Assembly (NCBI GenBank): GCA_964602125.1
Contig: CAZRPR010000001.1
Span: 21,890 to 62,665, forward strand
From: an uncultured Candidatus Saccharibacteria bacterium
GTDB taxonomy: Bacteria > Patescibacteriota > Minisyncoccia > CAIUEV01
Direction: 5' to 3'
Length of the DNA: 40,776 bases
The notes under the pieces are model-generated. The model did no database searches. It worked only from the letters and a program-made list of their open reading frames with translations, and was not told where the DNA came from. Shown here piece after piece: positions 3,086 through 38,803 of this stretch. Each line of letters opens with the position of its first letter. Position 1 is the first letter of the stretch. The position numbers were made by a program, and so were the translations under genes.

Positions 3086-4273
3086 ATGAAGAAAAAATCA
3101 ACTTCAAAGTCTAAAGACAAAAAACCAAAGAAGAAAATATCCCAAGCCAAAAAATTGGATAGGGAAGTGCTAACTAAAAAAAGAGGGGAACTAGATAAAA
3201 ATGAACTTAGCAAAGCGATTAGGAAAAAAAATACTCGAAAGAAAAAGTCTGGAAAAAAAATTAAAGAGCAACCCCAAATTATAGAAGAAAAAAACCCGCA
3301 AAAAATATCTTGGATGGGAGGGTTACTTTTTTTCTTAATTTTTATTTCTCTAAGCTTAATTTTTTTTCTCGGTAGCAGTTTTATTGATAGACCGAATATT
3401 GCGCCCACTGCTCAAAAGGGGGATTTGGCAGACCCAGAAAGTATCAACAAAGAGAAGTCTCTGCTCGAAATTCCTACGGCCAAAATCATTCCGCCCGAGA
3501 TTGACTCTTCCTCCTGGAAAGAATACAAAAGCGATTGGTACGGTTTTGGTCTGAACTATCCGCCCAATTGGAAACCGCCTGTCACCTCAAATCCTGTTTA
3601 CCATAAACCCGATAACCAGAACGATAATCGGGCTGCCGTCAAAGATCCTTGGGAAAAACGCTTTTTCTTCGCTAAACCCGAGGAGGAGAATAATGGATAT
3701 CTTGGCTTCGACGTTTTTGTATACAACGTTAAGACCATCAAGGAATTAAAAAACACGACAGAGTTTCCTCAAGTCCAGGCCGCCTTTATTGAAAATCAAC
3801 TTTCCTGCAACTATAATATAGAAGACCATTTGATTGAAAGTGATCTTCTCGAAGCGGAGGAAATTTACGTACCGTTGATGGATTCCTGTCTAAAAAATAC
3901 TTTTTTCTTTTCTGTTACTCGAGAGGAGTATATTTATAATATTGTGCCTCGAATAAAAGATGATTACATACCTCAAAAAGATATCAAGGAGGAAGTGGTG
4001 GCTCAGCTGCCTGATTTTTTTGGTGTCGCTCCCAGCTTTACACTGATCAAGATTAATCAAGTCAAACCCAAACCGAAAATTACCGCCCCTATGCCCGTCT
4101 CTTTTGCGGTGGTCAATGGTCGTTTGGTCTGTAACAAAAAAAATGACAAACCGGGAAAAAGTGACAAAACGAAGCACAGGCACCTAGATCTGGAGTGCTG
4201 TCTCGATCCGGACGAGTACCCAAACCCTCATTGCACCTACGATCCCGGGAAGTACGGCAAATATTTGAAATAA
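3086..4273 (+). CDS. Hypothetical membrane-anchored protein with Lys-rich N-terminus and Cys/His-rich C-terminal tail
   Basis: 395-aa ORF. About 75 aa of K-rich low complexity, one TM segment (GGLLFFLIFISLSLIFFLG), then an extracytoplasmic domain ending HRHLDLECCLDPDEYPNPHC. No family recognised. Confidence 0.55.
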   Translation: MKKKSTSKSKDKKPKKKISQAKKLDREVLTKKRGELDKNELSKAIRKKNTRKKKSGKKIKEQPQIIEEKNPQKISWMGGLLFFLIFISLSLIFFLGSSFIDRPNIAPTAQKGDLADPESINKEKSLLEIPTAKIIPPEIDSSSWKEYKSDWYGFGLNYPPNWKPPVTSNPVYHKPDNQNDNRAAVKDPWEKRFFFAKPEEENNGYLGFDVFVYNVKTIKELKNTTEFPQVQAAFIENQLSCNYNIEDHLIESDLLEAEEIYVPLMDSCLKNTFFFSVTREEYIYNIVPRIKDDYIPQKDIKEEVVAQLPDFFGVAPSFTLIKINQVKPKPKITAPMPVSFAVVNGRLVCNKKNDKPGKSDKTKHRHLDLECCLDPDEYPNPHCTYDPGKYGKYLK

Positions 4274-4514: not shown

Positions 4515-5750
4515 ATGTACAACAATCGATCAAATCGACCATCCTCCTTTAGTGGAAGAGGTGGTAGGGGAGGGAACAACTCCGGCCGAAGCTTCGGTCA
4601 ATTCAGACCTAAATTTTGGGGGAACCGCAGAGGATCTTCCCAGGGAAAAAGCATTGACGTTTCCCGCTTTATTTCTAAGGCCGCTCCTGGGCAAAGAGAG
4701 GAAGTTTATGTTCCCGCTAATCGCTTTGTTGATTTCGACATTGACAATCGACTGAAGCAAAACATTCTTCAAAAGGGATATACTGATCCTACCCCAATTC
4801 AAGATCAGGTCATTCCTCACATTCTTAACGGCAAGGACTTAGTCGGCTTAGCTGACACCGGCACGGGTAAAACGGCCGCCGTTCTTATTCCTTTGATTGA
4901 CAAAGTGTTGCGTAACCGCAATGACAAAGTTTTGATTATGACCCCGACTCGAGAGTTGGCGTTGCAAATCGAAAGTGAGTTTATCGCTTTTTCAAAGGGG
5001 TTGGGACTTTGGTCAGTAGCCTGTTTTGGTGGATCCAGTTTGGGTCGCCAAATTTCTTTGCTCCGACGCAATCATCACTTCGTTATCGGTACTCCGGGAC
5101 GATTGAAGGACTTAATTGAACGTCGAGTACTTGATCTTTCCGGCTTTAATAACGTCGTTTTAGATGAAGTAGATCGTATGTTTGACATCGGTTTCGTGAA
5201 AGAAATTAAACATTTAATGAGCTTTCTACCGAAAGAGAGACAATCGCTCTTTTTCTCCGCCACCATGTCTCGAAACGTTGAGACCTTGATCGGAGAAGCG
5301 GCTAGAAACCCCATCACTGTTTCCGTCAAAAGAACCACTAATGTTTCCAATATTGAGCAGGATATCATTCGTATTAATCGCTTCCAGGACAAAACGGAAG
5401 TGCTGTGTGAAATGTTAGCCAAAGATGAATTTAAAAAAGTGTTAATTTTCGGTCGTACCAAGATGGGAGTAGACAGACTTTCTCGTACCCTTTACCAAAA
5501 GGGACTTCGCACCGAATCTATTCACGGTGATAAGAATCAACGGGGAAGAGAGAAGGCGCTGAATCTTTTTAAGACTGACCGCATCAATATTCTCGTAGCC
5601 ACGGACGTAGCCGCTCGAGGATTGGATATTCCTGACGTTTCTCACGTCATCAATTTCGATGTACCTCAAACTTACGACGACTACATCCACCGAATCGGTA
5701 GAACCGGCCGCGCCAACAAGAAAGGCCAGGCTTTAACCTTTGTGGAATAG
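4515..5750 (+). CDS. DEAD-box ATP-dependent RNA helicase (DEVD variant) with N-terminal RGG/SR-rich tail
   Basis: Q-motif (TPIQ), ADTGTGKT, PTRELA, DEVD, SAT and HRIGRTGR. The first 45 aa or so are an Arg/Gly/Ser-rich low-complexity region. Confidence 0.92.
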   Translation: MYNNRSNRPSSFSGRGGRGGNNSGRSFGQFRPKFWGNRRGSSQGKSIDVSRFISKAAPGQREEVYVPANRFVDFDIDNRLKQNILQKGYTDPTPIQDQVIPHILNGKDLVGLADTGTGKTAAVLIPLIDKVLRNRNDKVLIMTPTRELALQIESEFIAFSKGLGLWSVACFGGSSLGRQISLLRRNHHFVIGTPGRLKDLIERRVLDLSGFNNVVLDEVDRMFDIGFVKEIKHLMSFLPKERQSLFFSATMSRNVETLIGEAARNPITVSVKRTTNVSNIEQDIIRINRFQDKTEVLCEMLAKDEFKKVLIFGRTKMGVDRLSRTLYQKGLRTESIHGDKNQRGREKALNLFKTDRINILVATDVAARGLDIPDVSHVINFDVPQTYDDYIHRIGRTGRANKKGQALTFVE

Positions 5751-5983: not shown

Positions 5984-6400
5984 TTATCTGTAGTGATTTC
6001 GTCGATGATGACGATTGCCTGAGCAGGCCCAACAAATCAATCGACAGTTGGATCCTCGGTTTTGACACTCCGCTAAAGCTCGTTTTTTAGCATCATCCAT
6101 GTTATTAAACCCATGAGAATAACCGGTAGCTCCACTCTCTGCCCTCGCTAAAGCTCCGCAAGAGTCCCTAAACCACGCTTTCCAAACACAATCCGATTCA
6201 CCACAGTTGGCTTTTGCGGCAGCAATGGCACCATCAGCAGAACCGTGCCCCTGCGAGTAACCACATCTACCCGTTGAGGAAGAATAGGCAATAGCTCCGT
6301 ACTCTGCTTTTGATTGGCTCACCCCAAGAATGAAAATTACTGTCATTAAGATGGCCAGCATCAACAAGTGAAGTTTTTTCATCTTTGCTACTCCCATCAT
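5984..6400 (-). CDS. Secreted DUF4189-like Cys-rich protein
   Basis: 138 aa with a signal peptide. Two repeats of the pattern YGA.A.S..TG..G.S.G......A...A...C....C, characteristic of DUF4189. A GGGAG RBS lies 7 nt upstream. Confidence 0.65.
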   Translation of the reverse strand: MMGVAKMKKLHLLMLAILMTVIFILGVSQSKAEYGAIAYSSSTGRCGYSQGHGSADGAIAAAKANCGESDCVWKAWFRDSCGALARAESGATGYSHGFNNMDDAKKRALAECQNRGSNCRLICWACSGNRHHRRNHYR

Positions 6401-13623: not shown

Positions 13624-13986
13624 TTATCTATTTAGAATCCAAGTTCTTATTGTTTCTATTACTCCAAACATATTTTTTCTAATTTCACCTTCTGAAAATC
13701 TAAGAAAATTTATTCCTAAAGATTCAATTTCTTTTTGTCTTTCTATATCTTTCTTGTTCTTTTCTTCTTCAAAATCATGAGTTACTCCATCAATTTCTAT
13801 AGCTAATTTTAACTCCTTGGAATAAAAATCAACGATATATTTTTTGATTGGTTTTTGTCTAATAAATCTATAGTTCTCAAGTTTTTTTCCTTTTAGTTCT
13901 TTCCATAGCAAAACTTCAGACAAGGTACTTTCCTTTCTTAGTTTCCTAGCTAGTTTTTTTAAGTTTTGATTGTAGAGAATCTTCAT
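13624..13986 (-). CDS. DUF559 / Vsr-like PD-(D/E)XK endonuclease-domain protein
   Basis: 120 aa. LRKESTLSEVLLWKELKGKKL..YRFIRQKPI..YIVDFY....LAIEIDG..H.........D..R...L...G...LRF is the typical DUF559 pattern. Confidence 0.85.
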   Translation of the reverse strand: MKILYNQNLKKLARKLRKESTLSEVLLWKELKGKKLENYRFIRQKPIKKYIVDFYSKELKLAIEIDGVTHDFEEEKNKKDIERQKEIESLGINFLRFSEGEIRKNMFGVIETIRTWILNR

Positions 13987-14027
13987 TATTATTTTTTAAA
14001 GATTAAAACACACCCCGTCTTGCCTTC

Positions 14028-14047
14028 CCTGCCTACCGGCAGGCAGG
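14028..14047. repeat. 20-nt palindrome copy (cctgcctaccggcaggcagg) nested in the right arm
   Basis: Read directly. It is extended by flanking cttgcc..ggcaag to a hairpin of about 38 nt and occupies the variable cassette between Box2 and Box1. Confidence 0.9.
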
Positions 14048-14186
14048 CGGCAAGCCACCCCTCTCGAGAGGGGATTAAAACATGCCTTGATAAATTTCTC
14101 TTAAAATCTAAATTAAAATAAAAATAGAAAAATATTTTTTAATTGTTTTTGAGAATCAAATTGATGTCTTATAATTAAAAAATGAC

Positions 14187-14255
14187 ACACACCCCGTCTT
14201 GCCTTCCCTGCCTACCGGCAGGCAGGCGGCAAGCCACCCCTCTCAAGAGGGGATT
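14187..14255. repeat. Solo second right arm (Box2-palindrome-Box1), tandem to the DUF559 element
   Basis: acacaccccgtcttgccttccctgcctaccggcaggcaggcggcaagccacccctctcaagaggggatt is nearly identical to 14008-14066 (tcaa versus tcga in the Box1 core). The two arms are separated by 120 nt of AT-rich sequence. Confidence 0.85.
14207..14226. repeat. 20-nt palindrome copy nested in the solo arm
   Basis: cctgcctaccggcaggcagg, read directly. Confidence 0.9.
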
Positions 14256-14299
14256 GACCATAATTCTCAATTTTCAATCCCTAATTTATAATTTTTGTC

Positions 14300-31736: not shown

Positions 31737-31819
31737 TGGTGGGTGATGCAGGAATCGAACCTGCGACCTTACGAATGTGAATCGTACGCTCCCTGCCTGC
31801 CGGCAGGCAGGTAACCAAC
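31737..31819 (-). pseudogene. 5'-truncated tRNA-Val(CAC)-like fragment with the 20-nt palindrome in its D-loop
   Basis: The minus-strand reading is GTTGGTTA + CCTGCCTGCCGGCAGGCAGG + GAGC-G-TACGA-TTCACAT-TCGTA-AGGTC-GCAGG-TTCGATT-CCTGC-ATCACCC-A-CCA. The 5' acceptor strand and 5' D-stem strand are absent. It abuts the CCA of the intact tRNA-Val with no spacer. Confidence 0.8.
31792..31811. repeat. 20-nt perfect palindrome CCTGCCTGCCGGCAGGCAGG
   Basis: Read directly. This is the only perfect copy. It sits between D-loop GGTTA and the 3' D-stem GAGC of the Val-like fragment. Confidence 0.95.
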
Positions 31820-31896
31820 TGGTGGACTTGAGAGGGCTCGAACCTCTGACCTCGGCGATGTGAACGCCGCGCTCTAACCAACTGAGCTACAAGTCC
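31820..31896 (-). tRNA. tRNA-Val (anticodon CAC), CCA encoded
   Basis: GGACTTG-TA-GCTC-AGTTGGTTA-GAGC-G-CGGCG-TTCACAT-CGCCG-AGGTC-AGAGG-TTCGAGC-CCTCT-CAAGTCC-A-CCA. 77 nt. Confidence 0.92.
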
Positions 31897-33936: not shown

Positions 33937-33941
33937 CTTTG

Positions 33942-34015
33942 TCGGGGTACTGGGACTCGAACCCAGAACCTCCTGCTCCCAAAGCAGGCGCCCTAACCAA
34001 TTAGGCCATACCCCG
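33942..34015 (-). tRNA. tRNA-Pro (anticodon TGG)
   Basis: CGGGGTA-TG-GCCT-AATTGGTTA-GGGC-G-CCTGC-TTTGGGA-GCAGG-AGGTT-CTGGG-TTCGAGT-CCCAG-TACCCCG-A. 74 nt, no CCA. Confidence 0.9.
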
Positions 34016-34039
34016 TTTACGAAATTTTAAAGATTGGTT

Positions 34040-34104
34040 TCCTGCTCCCAAAGCAGGCGCCCCCTGCCTACCGGCAGGCAGGTAACCAATTAGGCCATAC
34101 CCCG
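34040..34104 (-). pseudogene. 3'-truncated duplicate of tRNA-Pro(TGG) with the 20-nt palindrome in its D-loop
   Basis: The minus-strand reading is CGGGGTATGGCCTAATTGGTTA + CCTGCCTGCCGGTAGGCAGG + GGGCGCCTGCTTTGGGAGCAGGA. The 22 + 23 nt are identical to the intact gene 24 nt downstream. The T-arm and 3' acceptor strand are absent. Confidence 0.85.
34063..34082. repeat. 20-nt palindrome copy
   Basis: cctgcctaccggcaggcagg on the plus strand, between D-loop GGTTA and the 3' D-stem GGGC of the Pro fragment. Confidence 0.95.
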
Positions 34105-34132
34105 TCAACCGTTTTTAACACAGTAAAAACGA

Positions 34133-34162
34133 TTAGACAATCTTTGCTTTGTTTGCTATAAT
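34133..34162 (+). promoter_or_regulatory. Candidate promoter of the oxidative-stress cluster
   Basis: TTAGAC (34133-34138), 18-nt spacer, TATAAT (34157-34162). Located 30 nt upstream of the dfx ATG. Confidence 0.5.
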
Positions 34163-38617: not shown

Positions 38618-38648
38618 AAGTTCGGATCAATTCCGGACTTTTTTCTTT
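38618..38648 (+). terminator. Intrinsic terminator
   Basis: Stem aagttcgga/tccggactt (one G-U) with loop tcaat, followed by ttttttctttt. Confidence 0.75.
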
Positions 38649-38675
38649 TAAATTTCTGTGAGACCATCCAATTAG

Positions 38676-38796
38676 CCCCTTTTCCTTGTCCCTTGTACCT
38701 TGTTCCTCCAATAATTTATAACCTGCCTACCGGCAGGCAGGCTTTCCCCTTGTTCCTCCATAATTTATAATCTCTAATTTATAATTTCTAATCTCC
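38676..38796. repeat. Composite heptad arrays (NCCTTGT then TAATTTA/TAATCTC types) interrupted by the 20-nt palindrome
   Basis: tccttgt cccttgt accttgt tcctcca ataattt ataa | palindrome | ctttcc ccttgt tcctcca taattta taatctc taattta taatttc taatctc. Confidence 0.85.
38722..38741. repeat. 20-nt palindrome copy
   Basis: cctgcctaccggcaggcagg. It is flanked by a 23/24-nt direct duplication ccttgttcctcca(a)taatttataa (38698-38721 and 38748-38770). Confidence 0.95.
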
Positions 38797-38803
38797 GTAT
38801 CCC

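Follow-up and report, generated by a model that had tools for sequence, protein, structure and literature searches.

Several described systems resemble parts of the element reported here, a broken copy of the transfer RNA (tRNA) gene tRNA-Pro(UGG) that carries a 20-nucleotide (nt) palindrome, P, and lies beside the intact gene in a 40,776-nt stretch of DNA from an uncultured Candidatus Saccharibacteria bacterium (contig CAZRPR010000001.1, positions 21,890 to 62,665; this whole stretch is called the window below). We consider it probable that this broken copy derives from a selfish, tRNA-colonising cassette and no longer carries the cassette's gene. SegB of phages T4 and T6 is a free-standing GIY-YIG homing endonuclease of phage tRNA clusters; its gene adjoins tRNA genes, and the enzyme cuts tRNA-containing DNA. 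SegB is a much larger protein with a DNA-binding part, encoded by a phage gene. The setting of the cassettes is similar, as their nuclease gene abuts tRNA +1 and tandem arrays of them occur. Unlike SegB, however, they have a conserved palindrome, and their genes encode a catalytic domain alone, of 75–85 amino acids (aa), mostly in cellular genomes. Eukaryotic Slx1 is a structure-specific nuclease, and carrying that activity over to the cassette nuclease would be an analogy. The prokaryotic Slx1-like proteins are the minimal stand-alone form (Dunin-Horkawicz et al., PMC1564403); like these Slx1-like/UPF0213 proteins, the cassette gene product is a catalytic domain only. The solved chains nearest to it were UPF0213 EF2693 (1YWL), BH0048 (1ZG2) and SLX1 (6SEH), all of them weak matches. 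No function, mobility or tRNA linkage was found reported for the bacterial Slx1-like/UPF0213 proteins in the searchable literature.

Elements that enter tRNA genes by means of an integrase carry the gene for a tyrosine integrase, and it is typically the 3' part of the tRNA that they duplicate. Such an element carries or creates a partial duplicate and leaves one intact gene; the examples are ~9–23 kb long, with the repeat at both element ends (PMC9897764). Here, in contrast, the insert measures 89 nt, or ~300–350 nt with a nuclease gene, and the spare copy holds a palindrome. An integrase att site was rejected because the 5' part is the one duplicated and the two copies, 24 nt apart, leave no room for an integrase gene. 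Mobile group I introns with a homing endonuclease in tRNA genes are also selfish, nuclease-bearing inserts that spare tRNA function. Their rescue is by RNA splicing, whereas the present block lacks a ribozyme, the tRNA copy that bears P is truncated, and the rescue is a DNA-level duplication. A tRNA intron (group I or bulge-helix-bulge) was rejected as the P-bearing Pro copy has neither T-arm nor 3' acceptor strand, and a split or permuted tRNA because a complete tRNA-Pro(UGG) lies 24 nt away and the related genome L321 manages with a single gene. An Rfam scan of the window brought only the tRNA family to its gathering score.

The palindrome has counterparts of its own. Repetitive extragenic palindromes (REP) and bacterial interspersed mosaic elements with their REP-associated tyrosine transposases (RAYT), Rickettsia palindromic elements and mitochondrial GC clusters are, like P, GC-rich hairpin repeats scattered in AT-rich DNA; they too can be nested and exist as many copies that include no gene. 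Each REP family is specific to a lineage and bears GTAG or CGTC tags (see PMC3733652). P, unlike these, does not vary between phyla: one 20-mer is shared by Patescibacteria, Bacteroidota, Omnitrophota, Planctomycetota, Proteobacteria and viral contigs. The gene it is tied to is that of a GIY-YIG nuclease and not that of a Y1 (RAYT) transposase, although the genome may carry a RAYT gene outside the ~40 kb of the window. In none of the nearest systems (SegB-type genes, integrase att duplications, palindromic repeat families and bacterial Slx1/UPF0213 proteins) does a domain-only nuclease go together with a regularly duplicated 5' part of the target tRNA and a cross-phylum 20-mer. The cassette is apparently undescribed; no description of it or of P was found in the searchable literature, which omits most subscription journals.

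Read on the minus strand, the locus consists of nt 1–22 of tRNA-Pro (A), P, nt 23–45 (B), a 24-nt spacer (X) and the intact tRNA-Pro(UGG), as follows.

34016..34104, minus strand: the complete insertion (A+P+B+X, 89 nt), as sized by the empty site of L321 in a three-way alignment
34083..34104, minus strand: A, CGGGGTATGGCCTAATTGGTTA, the 5' acceptor strand, the 5' strand of the D-stem and the D-loop; 22/22 identical to 34015–33994 and identical in L291
34063..34082, minus strand: P, the palindrome CCTGCCTGCCGGTAGGCAGG (20 nt, T variant), given here in tRNA orientation
34040..34062, minus strand: B, GGGCGCCTGCTTTGGGAGCAGGA, the 3' strand of the D-stem and the whole anticodon arm; 23/23 identical to nt 23–45 of the gene
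34016..34039, minus strand: X, the spacer AACCAATCTTTAAAATTTCGTAAA, 24 nt, 21/24 identical to L291; it holds a -10-like hexamer, TAAAAT
33941..34015, minus strand: intact tRNA-Pro(UGG), found by ARAGORN and by Rfam RF00005 (70.6 bits), identical in L291 and L321

The identity of A+B to the intact gene (45/45) is far beyond chance. The variable loop, the T-arm and the 3' acceptor strand are missing from the fragment, which neither of the tRNA tools (ARAGORN and the Rfam tRNA model) called. Within it, P sits between A21 of the D-loop and G22 of the D-stem. The end of B, at the foot of the anticodon stem, coincides with the end of the fragment in the cassettes L046, L095 and L113. X may be a residue of the cassette interior. 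Its first bases, AACCAAT, are the reverse complement of the D-loop sequence ATTGGTT; this was taken as chance, as the match covers only 7 nt and is degraded in L291.

Related genomes show the Pro site both filled and empty. L291, from a different study, has the same block at the same syntenic locus, with 65/65 identical positions in A+P+B, 21/24 in X and an identical tRNA-Pro. Its coding DNA is 70–79% identical to that of the window (AlkD protein 70%, Dfx protein 75%). In L321 (Dfx 81% identical), the conserved upstream region is followed by a single tRNA-Pro, i.e., an empty site, and the three-way alignment has a clean 89-column gap in L321 that equals A+P+B+X. The DNA upstream of the fragment shows homology with the stretch that precedes the single tRNA-Pro of L321 on its 5' side, and X is not homologous to this ancestral flank. 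As the last bases before the L291 fragment align with the 5' flank of the L321 tRNA, X is not the old flank and arrived with the insertion. The window and L291 share both the Pro block and a second P insertion (in the tRNA gene Val2, described below), so the simplest history is an entry before these lineages split. Between the two, the neighbouring inter-tRNA spacers and the last ~20 nt before the fragment are scrambled. The gene order of the window was not present at the loci reached via the AlkD homologues P0004, P0007, P0013 and P0016.

Taken against the original prediction, which was made from the window sequence without database searches, these data agree on the anatomy: a broken tRNA-Pro copy with a palindrome in the D-loop, 24 nt from the intact gene, identical over 22 and 23 nt and missing the T-arm and 3' acceptor strand. 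The comparison with related genomes that it had proposed yielded both expected forms, the intact tRNA only (L321) and the tRNA with the fragment (L291). Its view of the fragment as a recent exact duplicate did not hold: because the block is also present in a relative with only 70–79% coding identity, the duplicate is old and has been kept identical.

The layout recurs far beyond this lineage. A metagenome scan for a D-loop followed by P, a pattern that fixes one orientation and a D-loop-like context but not what follows, gave at least 120 loci; the counts from this and the other scans are counts of samples. Scans without selection for tRNA context already contained a fragment with P, a spacer and an intact tRNA in L005 (Leu), L008 (Leu) and L046 (Val), with further cases in L027, L054, L095 and the viral L164. 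Among the metagenome matches listed, the P-bearing fragment matched the sequence of the intact tRNA downstream at ~50 distinct loci, usually beginning within a few nt of tRNA +1 and ending at nt 22–45. The fragment stood upstream of the intact tRNA in 58 of the rows listed and downstream in six. At least 16 tRNA species and several phyla are represented.

By the spacing between P and the tRNA, the loci form a short class (~16–120 nt) and a long class (~240–310 nt). The long class encodes a protein of 75–85 aa that consists of the GIY-YIG catalytic domain only (Pfam PF01541, E ~1e-14 to 1e-16). By profile search, this gene was present in 42 of the 120 metagenome loci listed, with P 14–61 nt upstream on the same strand, and it adjoined P in four genome loci and one viral locus as well. 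In 37 of 46 cases, a count that includes some redundant samples, the stop codon of the nuclease gene and tRNA +1 were at most 10 nt apart (mode 0). When loci were chosen by the protein alone, all four were at a tRNA-Leu and had the nuclease gene between the intact tRNA and a fragment that bore P or a variant of it. Two P variants at these loci had positions 5 and 12 changed together, which in our reading keeps the hairpin CCTGNC-TGCC-GNCAGG. The short and long classes are connected by two loci: the spacer of L183 reads MFTVYAI-stop, that of L194 has MF fused to FLKKL, and both match the two ends of the L312 nuclease. Judged from these remnants, gene-less short spacers at least sometimes stem from full cassettes by internal deletion of the nuclease gene.

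Repeated rounds of insertion are also visible. Tandem arrays were found in L289, L270, L278 and L170, two-round loci in L215 and L225, and two P copies within one fragment in L095 and L281. At the two-round loci (L215 ~340–500, L225 ~5000–5160), the older fragment bears another D-arm palindrome, TCCGCCATCCGCCAACTGGTCGGAGGCGGAGG and CCTGCCCGCATTGC...GCAGGCGGG, and the nuclease there has AREKQLK where P-linked nucleases have REKYLKSGxGKE; the type of palindrome may track the nuclease clade. Other loops can be occupied too. In L278 (1–420), a tRNA 3' fragment has P in its T-loop, between GGTTC and GAATCC, inside a tandem array of P and the nuclease gene, and in L218 (~6100–6240) a tRNA-like pseudo-copy next to a GIY-YIG gene has other palindromes in both its D- and its T-loop. 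These two cases indicate that all three tRNA loops can be targets.

Two properties of a free-standing GIY-YIG cassette can be compared directly with the window. A nuclease gene within the block was not found in the window and was found in the related full cassettes, so the window copy can only be a derivative. Presence and absence at the same site with exact boundaries was found, as an 89-nt indel (window and L291 filled, L321 empty). We assigned the window copy to the cassette family on the basis of this polymorphism, the layout and the end of the fragment at the anticodon-stem foot.

In a full cassette, the target tRNA is copied from about +1 as far as nt 22–55, with P interrupting the D-arm of the copy; a leader of roughly 10–60 nt follows, and then a gene for a 75–85-aa GIY-YIG nuclease (catalytic domain only, Slx1/UPF0213-like), whose stop codon adjoins +1 of an intact copy of the tRNA. 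We suggest that the nuclease breaks a tRNA gene or its hairpins and that repair then copies the cassette in, with the partial tRNA copy as left homology arm and the intact tRNA as right arm, so that the gene would be restored. With tRNA sequence on both sides, the cassette could enter any genome that has that tRNA and would not destroy it, and renewed cutting of the intact copy would yield tandem arrays. P might disable the nuclease target or structure in the spare copy, might interrupt the direct repeat and so slow the loss of the cassette, or might be a recognition site. For this lineage, the block would have entered before the window and L291 split, leaving only the 24-nt X at the position of the nuclease gene; the old promoter would face a dead fragment, and the anticodon loop and X may serve the tRNA as a new promoter.

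The tRNA-Val(CAC) locus of the window illustrates the use of spare copies. This lineage had two tandem tRNA-Val(CAC) paralogues, Val1 and Val2.

31820..31896, minus strand: intact tRNA-Val(CAC), Val1, found by ARAGORN and Rfam
31737..31819, minus strand: remnant of Val2, with 8 nt of the D-loop, P (31792–31811, C variant) and the whole 3' part through CCA

Val2 of the window bears P as in L291 but has lost its first ~14 nt. In L291, Val1 is intact and Val2 is full length, with P in the D-loop and a decayed 5' end. In L321, Val1 is a 5' fragment that carries P at the same site, between GGTTA and GAGC, and ends in the anticodon loop, and Val2 is intact. As P is in Val1 of L321 but in Val2 of the window and L291, the same D-loop position was struck independently. 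The carrier paralogue thus differs by lineage, and one working Val gene is always left. Between the window (31737–31791) and L291 (4460–4514), Val2 differs by five substitutions in ~55 nt, two of which form a compensatory anticodon-stem pair (A-T in the window, G-C in L291); the 3' part of Val2 may still fold as RNA under selection.

In its broader claims the original prediction fared well on the link between palindrome and duplication. Its proposal that the palindrome goes with local partial duplication that leaves one working gene is borne out by ~50 distinct loci with many tRNA types and several phyla. Its expectation that insertion is tolerated where a spare copy exists agrees with the Val locus, where a plain P insertion or a truncated copy occurs in the presence of a second paralogue. 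Overall it is thus partly supported, as it erred on the age of the duplicate and missed the GIY-YIG gene and the occurrence of P across phyla.

P itself is widespread. The window contains five copies, with none expected in shuffled sequences. A scan for exact P in one genome per species gave at least 120 loci, and those listed belonged to Patescibacteria, Bacteroidota (including cultured isolates), Omnitrophota, Planctomycetota, Proteobacteria, Nitrospirota and Chloroflexota; a search of viral contigs located P in 47 stretches. The sequences flanking P were unrelated between loci, and copies with 1–3 mismatches exist, as expected of a family that inserts and then decays. P was found within P, between CCG and G at its centre, in L022, L028, L061 and L067; other recurrent sites were a terminator loop (L112), the loops of other palindromes, and tRNA D-arms. 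Of the 124 copies listed, 10 lay within 200 nt of a tRNA gene, against ~2% estimated from the tRNA density of the same loci. Where a T-variant P had a defined neighbour (Pro in the window, Pro and Val2 in L291, L027 and L095), the T was on the sense strand of the tRNA or nuclease gene, where it permits a G-U pair. Exact 7-nt direct repeats abutted P in seven of ~320 copies, compared with 0.05% of control positions. They were seen in L068, L107, L145, L219, L236/L274 and L251 (e.g., TTCGTCA-P-TTCGTCA), several of them within short tandem-repeat DNA. Direct or inverted flank repeats were ~5- to 10-fold more frequent than at random positions, with most P copies having none and the controls being mostly coding. 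A transposon or miniature inverted-repeat transposable element with a fixed target-site duplication was rejected, given that an exact flanking repeat is rare and that the length of tRNA duplicated is not fixed but runs from 22 to at least 45 nt. All-against-all clustering of open reading frames of at least 90 aa near P revealed no P-linked family in cellular loci, a cut-off that missed the 80-aa nuclease genes.

Other readings of the locus have to be weighed against that of a gene-less cassette derivative. One of them, which we regard as unlikely, treats P as a tiny mobile hairpin that is moved in trans into hairpin loops, with the tRNA D-loop as a hot spot, and that survives in an essential tRNA only in a spare copy from an unrelated duplication; the nuclease link would then be secondary. 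Solitary copies with unrelated flanks in many phyla fit this account, as do the P-in-P insertions, the copies in the terminator loop of L112 and in the loops of other palindromes, the plain insertion into the full-length Val2 of L291, the hits on either of two redundant Val paralogues, the paired copies within single fragments of L095 and L281, and the excess of exact 7-nt flanking repeats. It has difficulty, however, with the empty Pro site of L321, which is a single gene with no earlier tandem duplicate seen, with the regular position of P 14–61 nt upstream of a nuclease gene (42/120 listed loci and 4/4 protein-chosen loci), with a fragment that is nearly always upstream of the intact gene (58 rows versus six), and with the missing target duplication at most copies. 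A related idea, somewhat speculative and one that we put forward only tentatively, combines hairpin and nuclease: P would be the cognate DNA hairpin of a class of mobile elements not recognised so far, whose driving enzymes would be minimal Slx1-like GIY-YIG nucleases that cut extruded hairpin loops (tRNA D-, anticodon- and T-loops, terminators and P itself), and P alone would be moved in trans as a non-autonomous form. Ordinary slippage, i.e., a tandem duplication of the tRNA gene, decay of the upstream copy and chance insertion of a resident repeat without any dedicated element, has a precedent in the two tandem Val(CAC) paralogues of this lineage. Yet X was not copied from the upstream flank, and the same polar layout with palindrome and nuclease gene recurs across tRNA types and phyla, so we give slippage very little credence. 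An assembly artefact is the least credible reading, with a probability close to nil. In one Logan assembly, the contig breaks exactly between GGTTA and P. A chimeric join or collapsed repeat was nevertheless rejected, as an independent Logan assembly (L001) is identical to the window in arrangement and sequence and another genome, obtained in another study, has the block at the syntenic site.

A number of observations weigh against the cassette reading. A GIY-YIG gene is absent from the 40.8-kb window even in the most permissive profile search (E up to 50), and no trace of one is detectable in X, which is too short to show it. Well over 80% of the P copies listed from the genome scan are far from any tRNA or nuclease gene, and with mostly solitary copies P leads an existence of its own. 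In L113 this layout lacks a palindrome altogether, and L215 and L225 carry other palindromes, so P and the duplication are separable. The fragment is identical at 65/65 positions in two genomes whose coding DNA differs by 21–30%, which is odd for a dead relic and would need gene conversion, selection or later transfer. As nothing interrupts the intact tRNA, a host of the nuclease would seem to expose its own gene to cutting. The model also gives no account of how the matching 5' part arises when a cassette enters a new tRNA type.

The strong conservation of the fragment raises the question of a role as leader, and two promoter-like matches lie at the locus.

34024..34051, minus strand: TTGGGA-16 nt-TAAAAT, from a consensus scan, 9/12 positions, a consensus match only
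34112..34140, minus strand: TTGTCT-17 nt-TAAAAA, conserved upstream and kept in the window, L291 and L321; 8/12 positions, under the scan threshold

In the first of these, the -35 hexamer TTGGGA falls in the anticodon loop of the fragment and the -10 hexamer TAAAAT in X, with a predicted start at about tRNA +1; both hexamers are unchanged in L291, and the three differences in X lie outside them. The second would be, in our reading of the sequence, the ancestral tRNA-Pro promoter, which now faces the fragment. For a joint transcript of fragment and tRNA, pairing of the fragment with the 3' acceptor strand of the tRNA is predicted. An adopted, secondary role of the block as tRNA-Pro promoter may fit, as far as a consensus match can suggest. 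The stronger version, in which the block, whatever its origin, is now a working tRNA-Pro leader (a promoter or a structured decoy) kept by selection, seems to us distinctly improbable. The contrast between 0 changes in 65 nt of the fragment and 3 in 24 nt of X on one side, and the scrambled inter-tRNA spacers and ~20 nt before the fragment on the other, is in its favour, and the scan match aims at tRNA +1. However, L321 expresses the same tRNA without the block, a 9/12 match lies in AT-rich DNA, no such motif was seen by eye in the other short-cassette spacers L008 (6 nt) and L046 (29 nt), and a read-through fragment is predicted to pair with the 3' acceptor strand of the real tRNA. The 11-mer AATCTTTAAAA occurs in X (34025–34035, minus strand), 27 nt after P and 9 nt before tRNA +1, and again at 13994–14004 on the minus strand, 23 nt after P and 7 nt before the ATG of a DUF559 gene; it could be a common -10-like module or a chance repeat in AT-rich DNA.

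If the cassette reading is right, the very common tiny genes annotated as GIY-YIG nuclease family in Bacteroidota, Patescibacteria and other phyla would be selfish elements. tRNA genes would be a safe landing site common to all genomes, with the tRNA kept by duplication instead of splicing or integrase att sites, and the system would offer a way to learn how an endonuclease can target an essential, invariant gene without host death. It would also account for many unexplained 5' tRNA fragments and contig breaks beside tRNA genes in metagenome assemblies, and such fragments would have to be annotated as element scars, not as pseudogenes from recent duplications. P is conserved far better than the neighbouring protein, which suggests a recognition step that awaits understanding. 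Should P be the hairpin of a mobile-element class of its own, its 20 nt would be the smallest mobile DNA known, common to bacterial phyla and their viruses.

The three remaining P copies of the window lie away from tRNA genes, as follows.

14028..14047, minus strand: P nested within another hairpin's loop; a DUF559 nuclease gene (13624–13986, minus strand) lies 41 nt downstream
14207..14226, minus strand: P in the second copy of the same ~66-nt composite repeat
38722..38741, minus strand: P upstream of uvrB, with imperfect 23-nt direct repeats on both sides, TTATAAATTATGGAGGAACAAGG and TTATAAATTATTGGAGGAACAAGG

The first two belong to a region (13990–14260, minus strand) with two copies, 179 nt apart, of a ~66-nt composite repeat, AATCCCCTCTYGAGAGGGGTGGCTTGCCG-P-GAAGGCAAGACGGGGTGTGT, in which P occupies the loop of a second hairpin (CTTGCC/GGCAAG) beside a third (CCCCTCT.GAGAGGGG). 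The proximal repeat ends 41 nt upstream of the start codon of the DUF559 (Vsr-like) gene, a spacing that matches that of P to GIY-YIG genes. DUF559 as a general partner of P was dropped, since a profile search found it at one other P locus, there 4 kb from P. For the 38722 copy, no empty site could be defined, as the intergenic stretch is longer than that of L321 and cannot be aligned to it. Short repeats of the ACAAGG type also flank this copy (38640–38800, minus strand), and similar GGACAAG repeats adjoin P in L092. In L167 (3915–4123), an IMG/VR viral contig, at least 10 tandem units with a 21-nt period each contain a one-mismatch P, CCTGCCTGCCGGTAGGCATG, with more copies elsewhere on the contig. 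A second GC-rich palindrome, CCGCCAGCTGGCGG, adjoins P in L016 (~3330–3350) and L024 (~165–185), one of them a gammaproteobacterial and one a Saccharibacteria metagenome-assembled genome, and P may be one of several palindromes common to different phyla.

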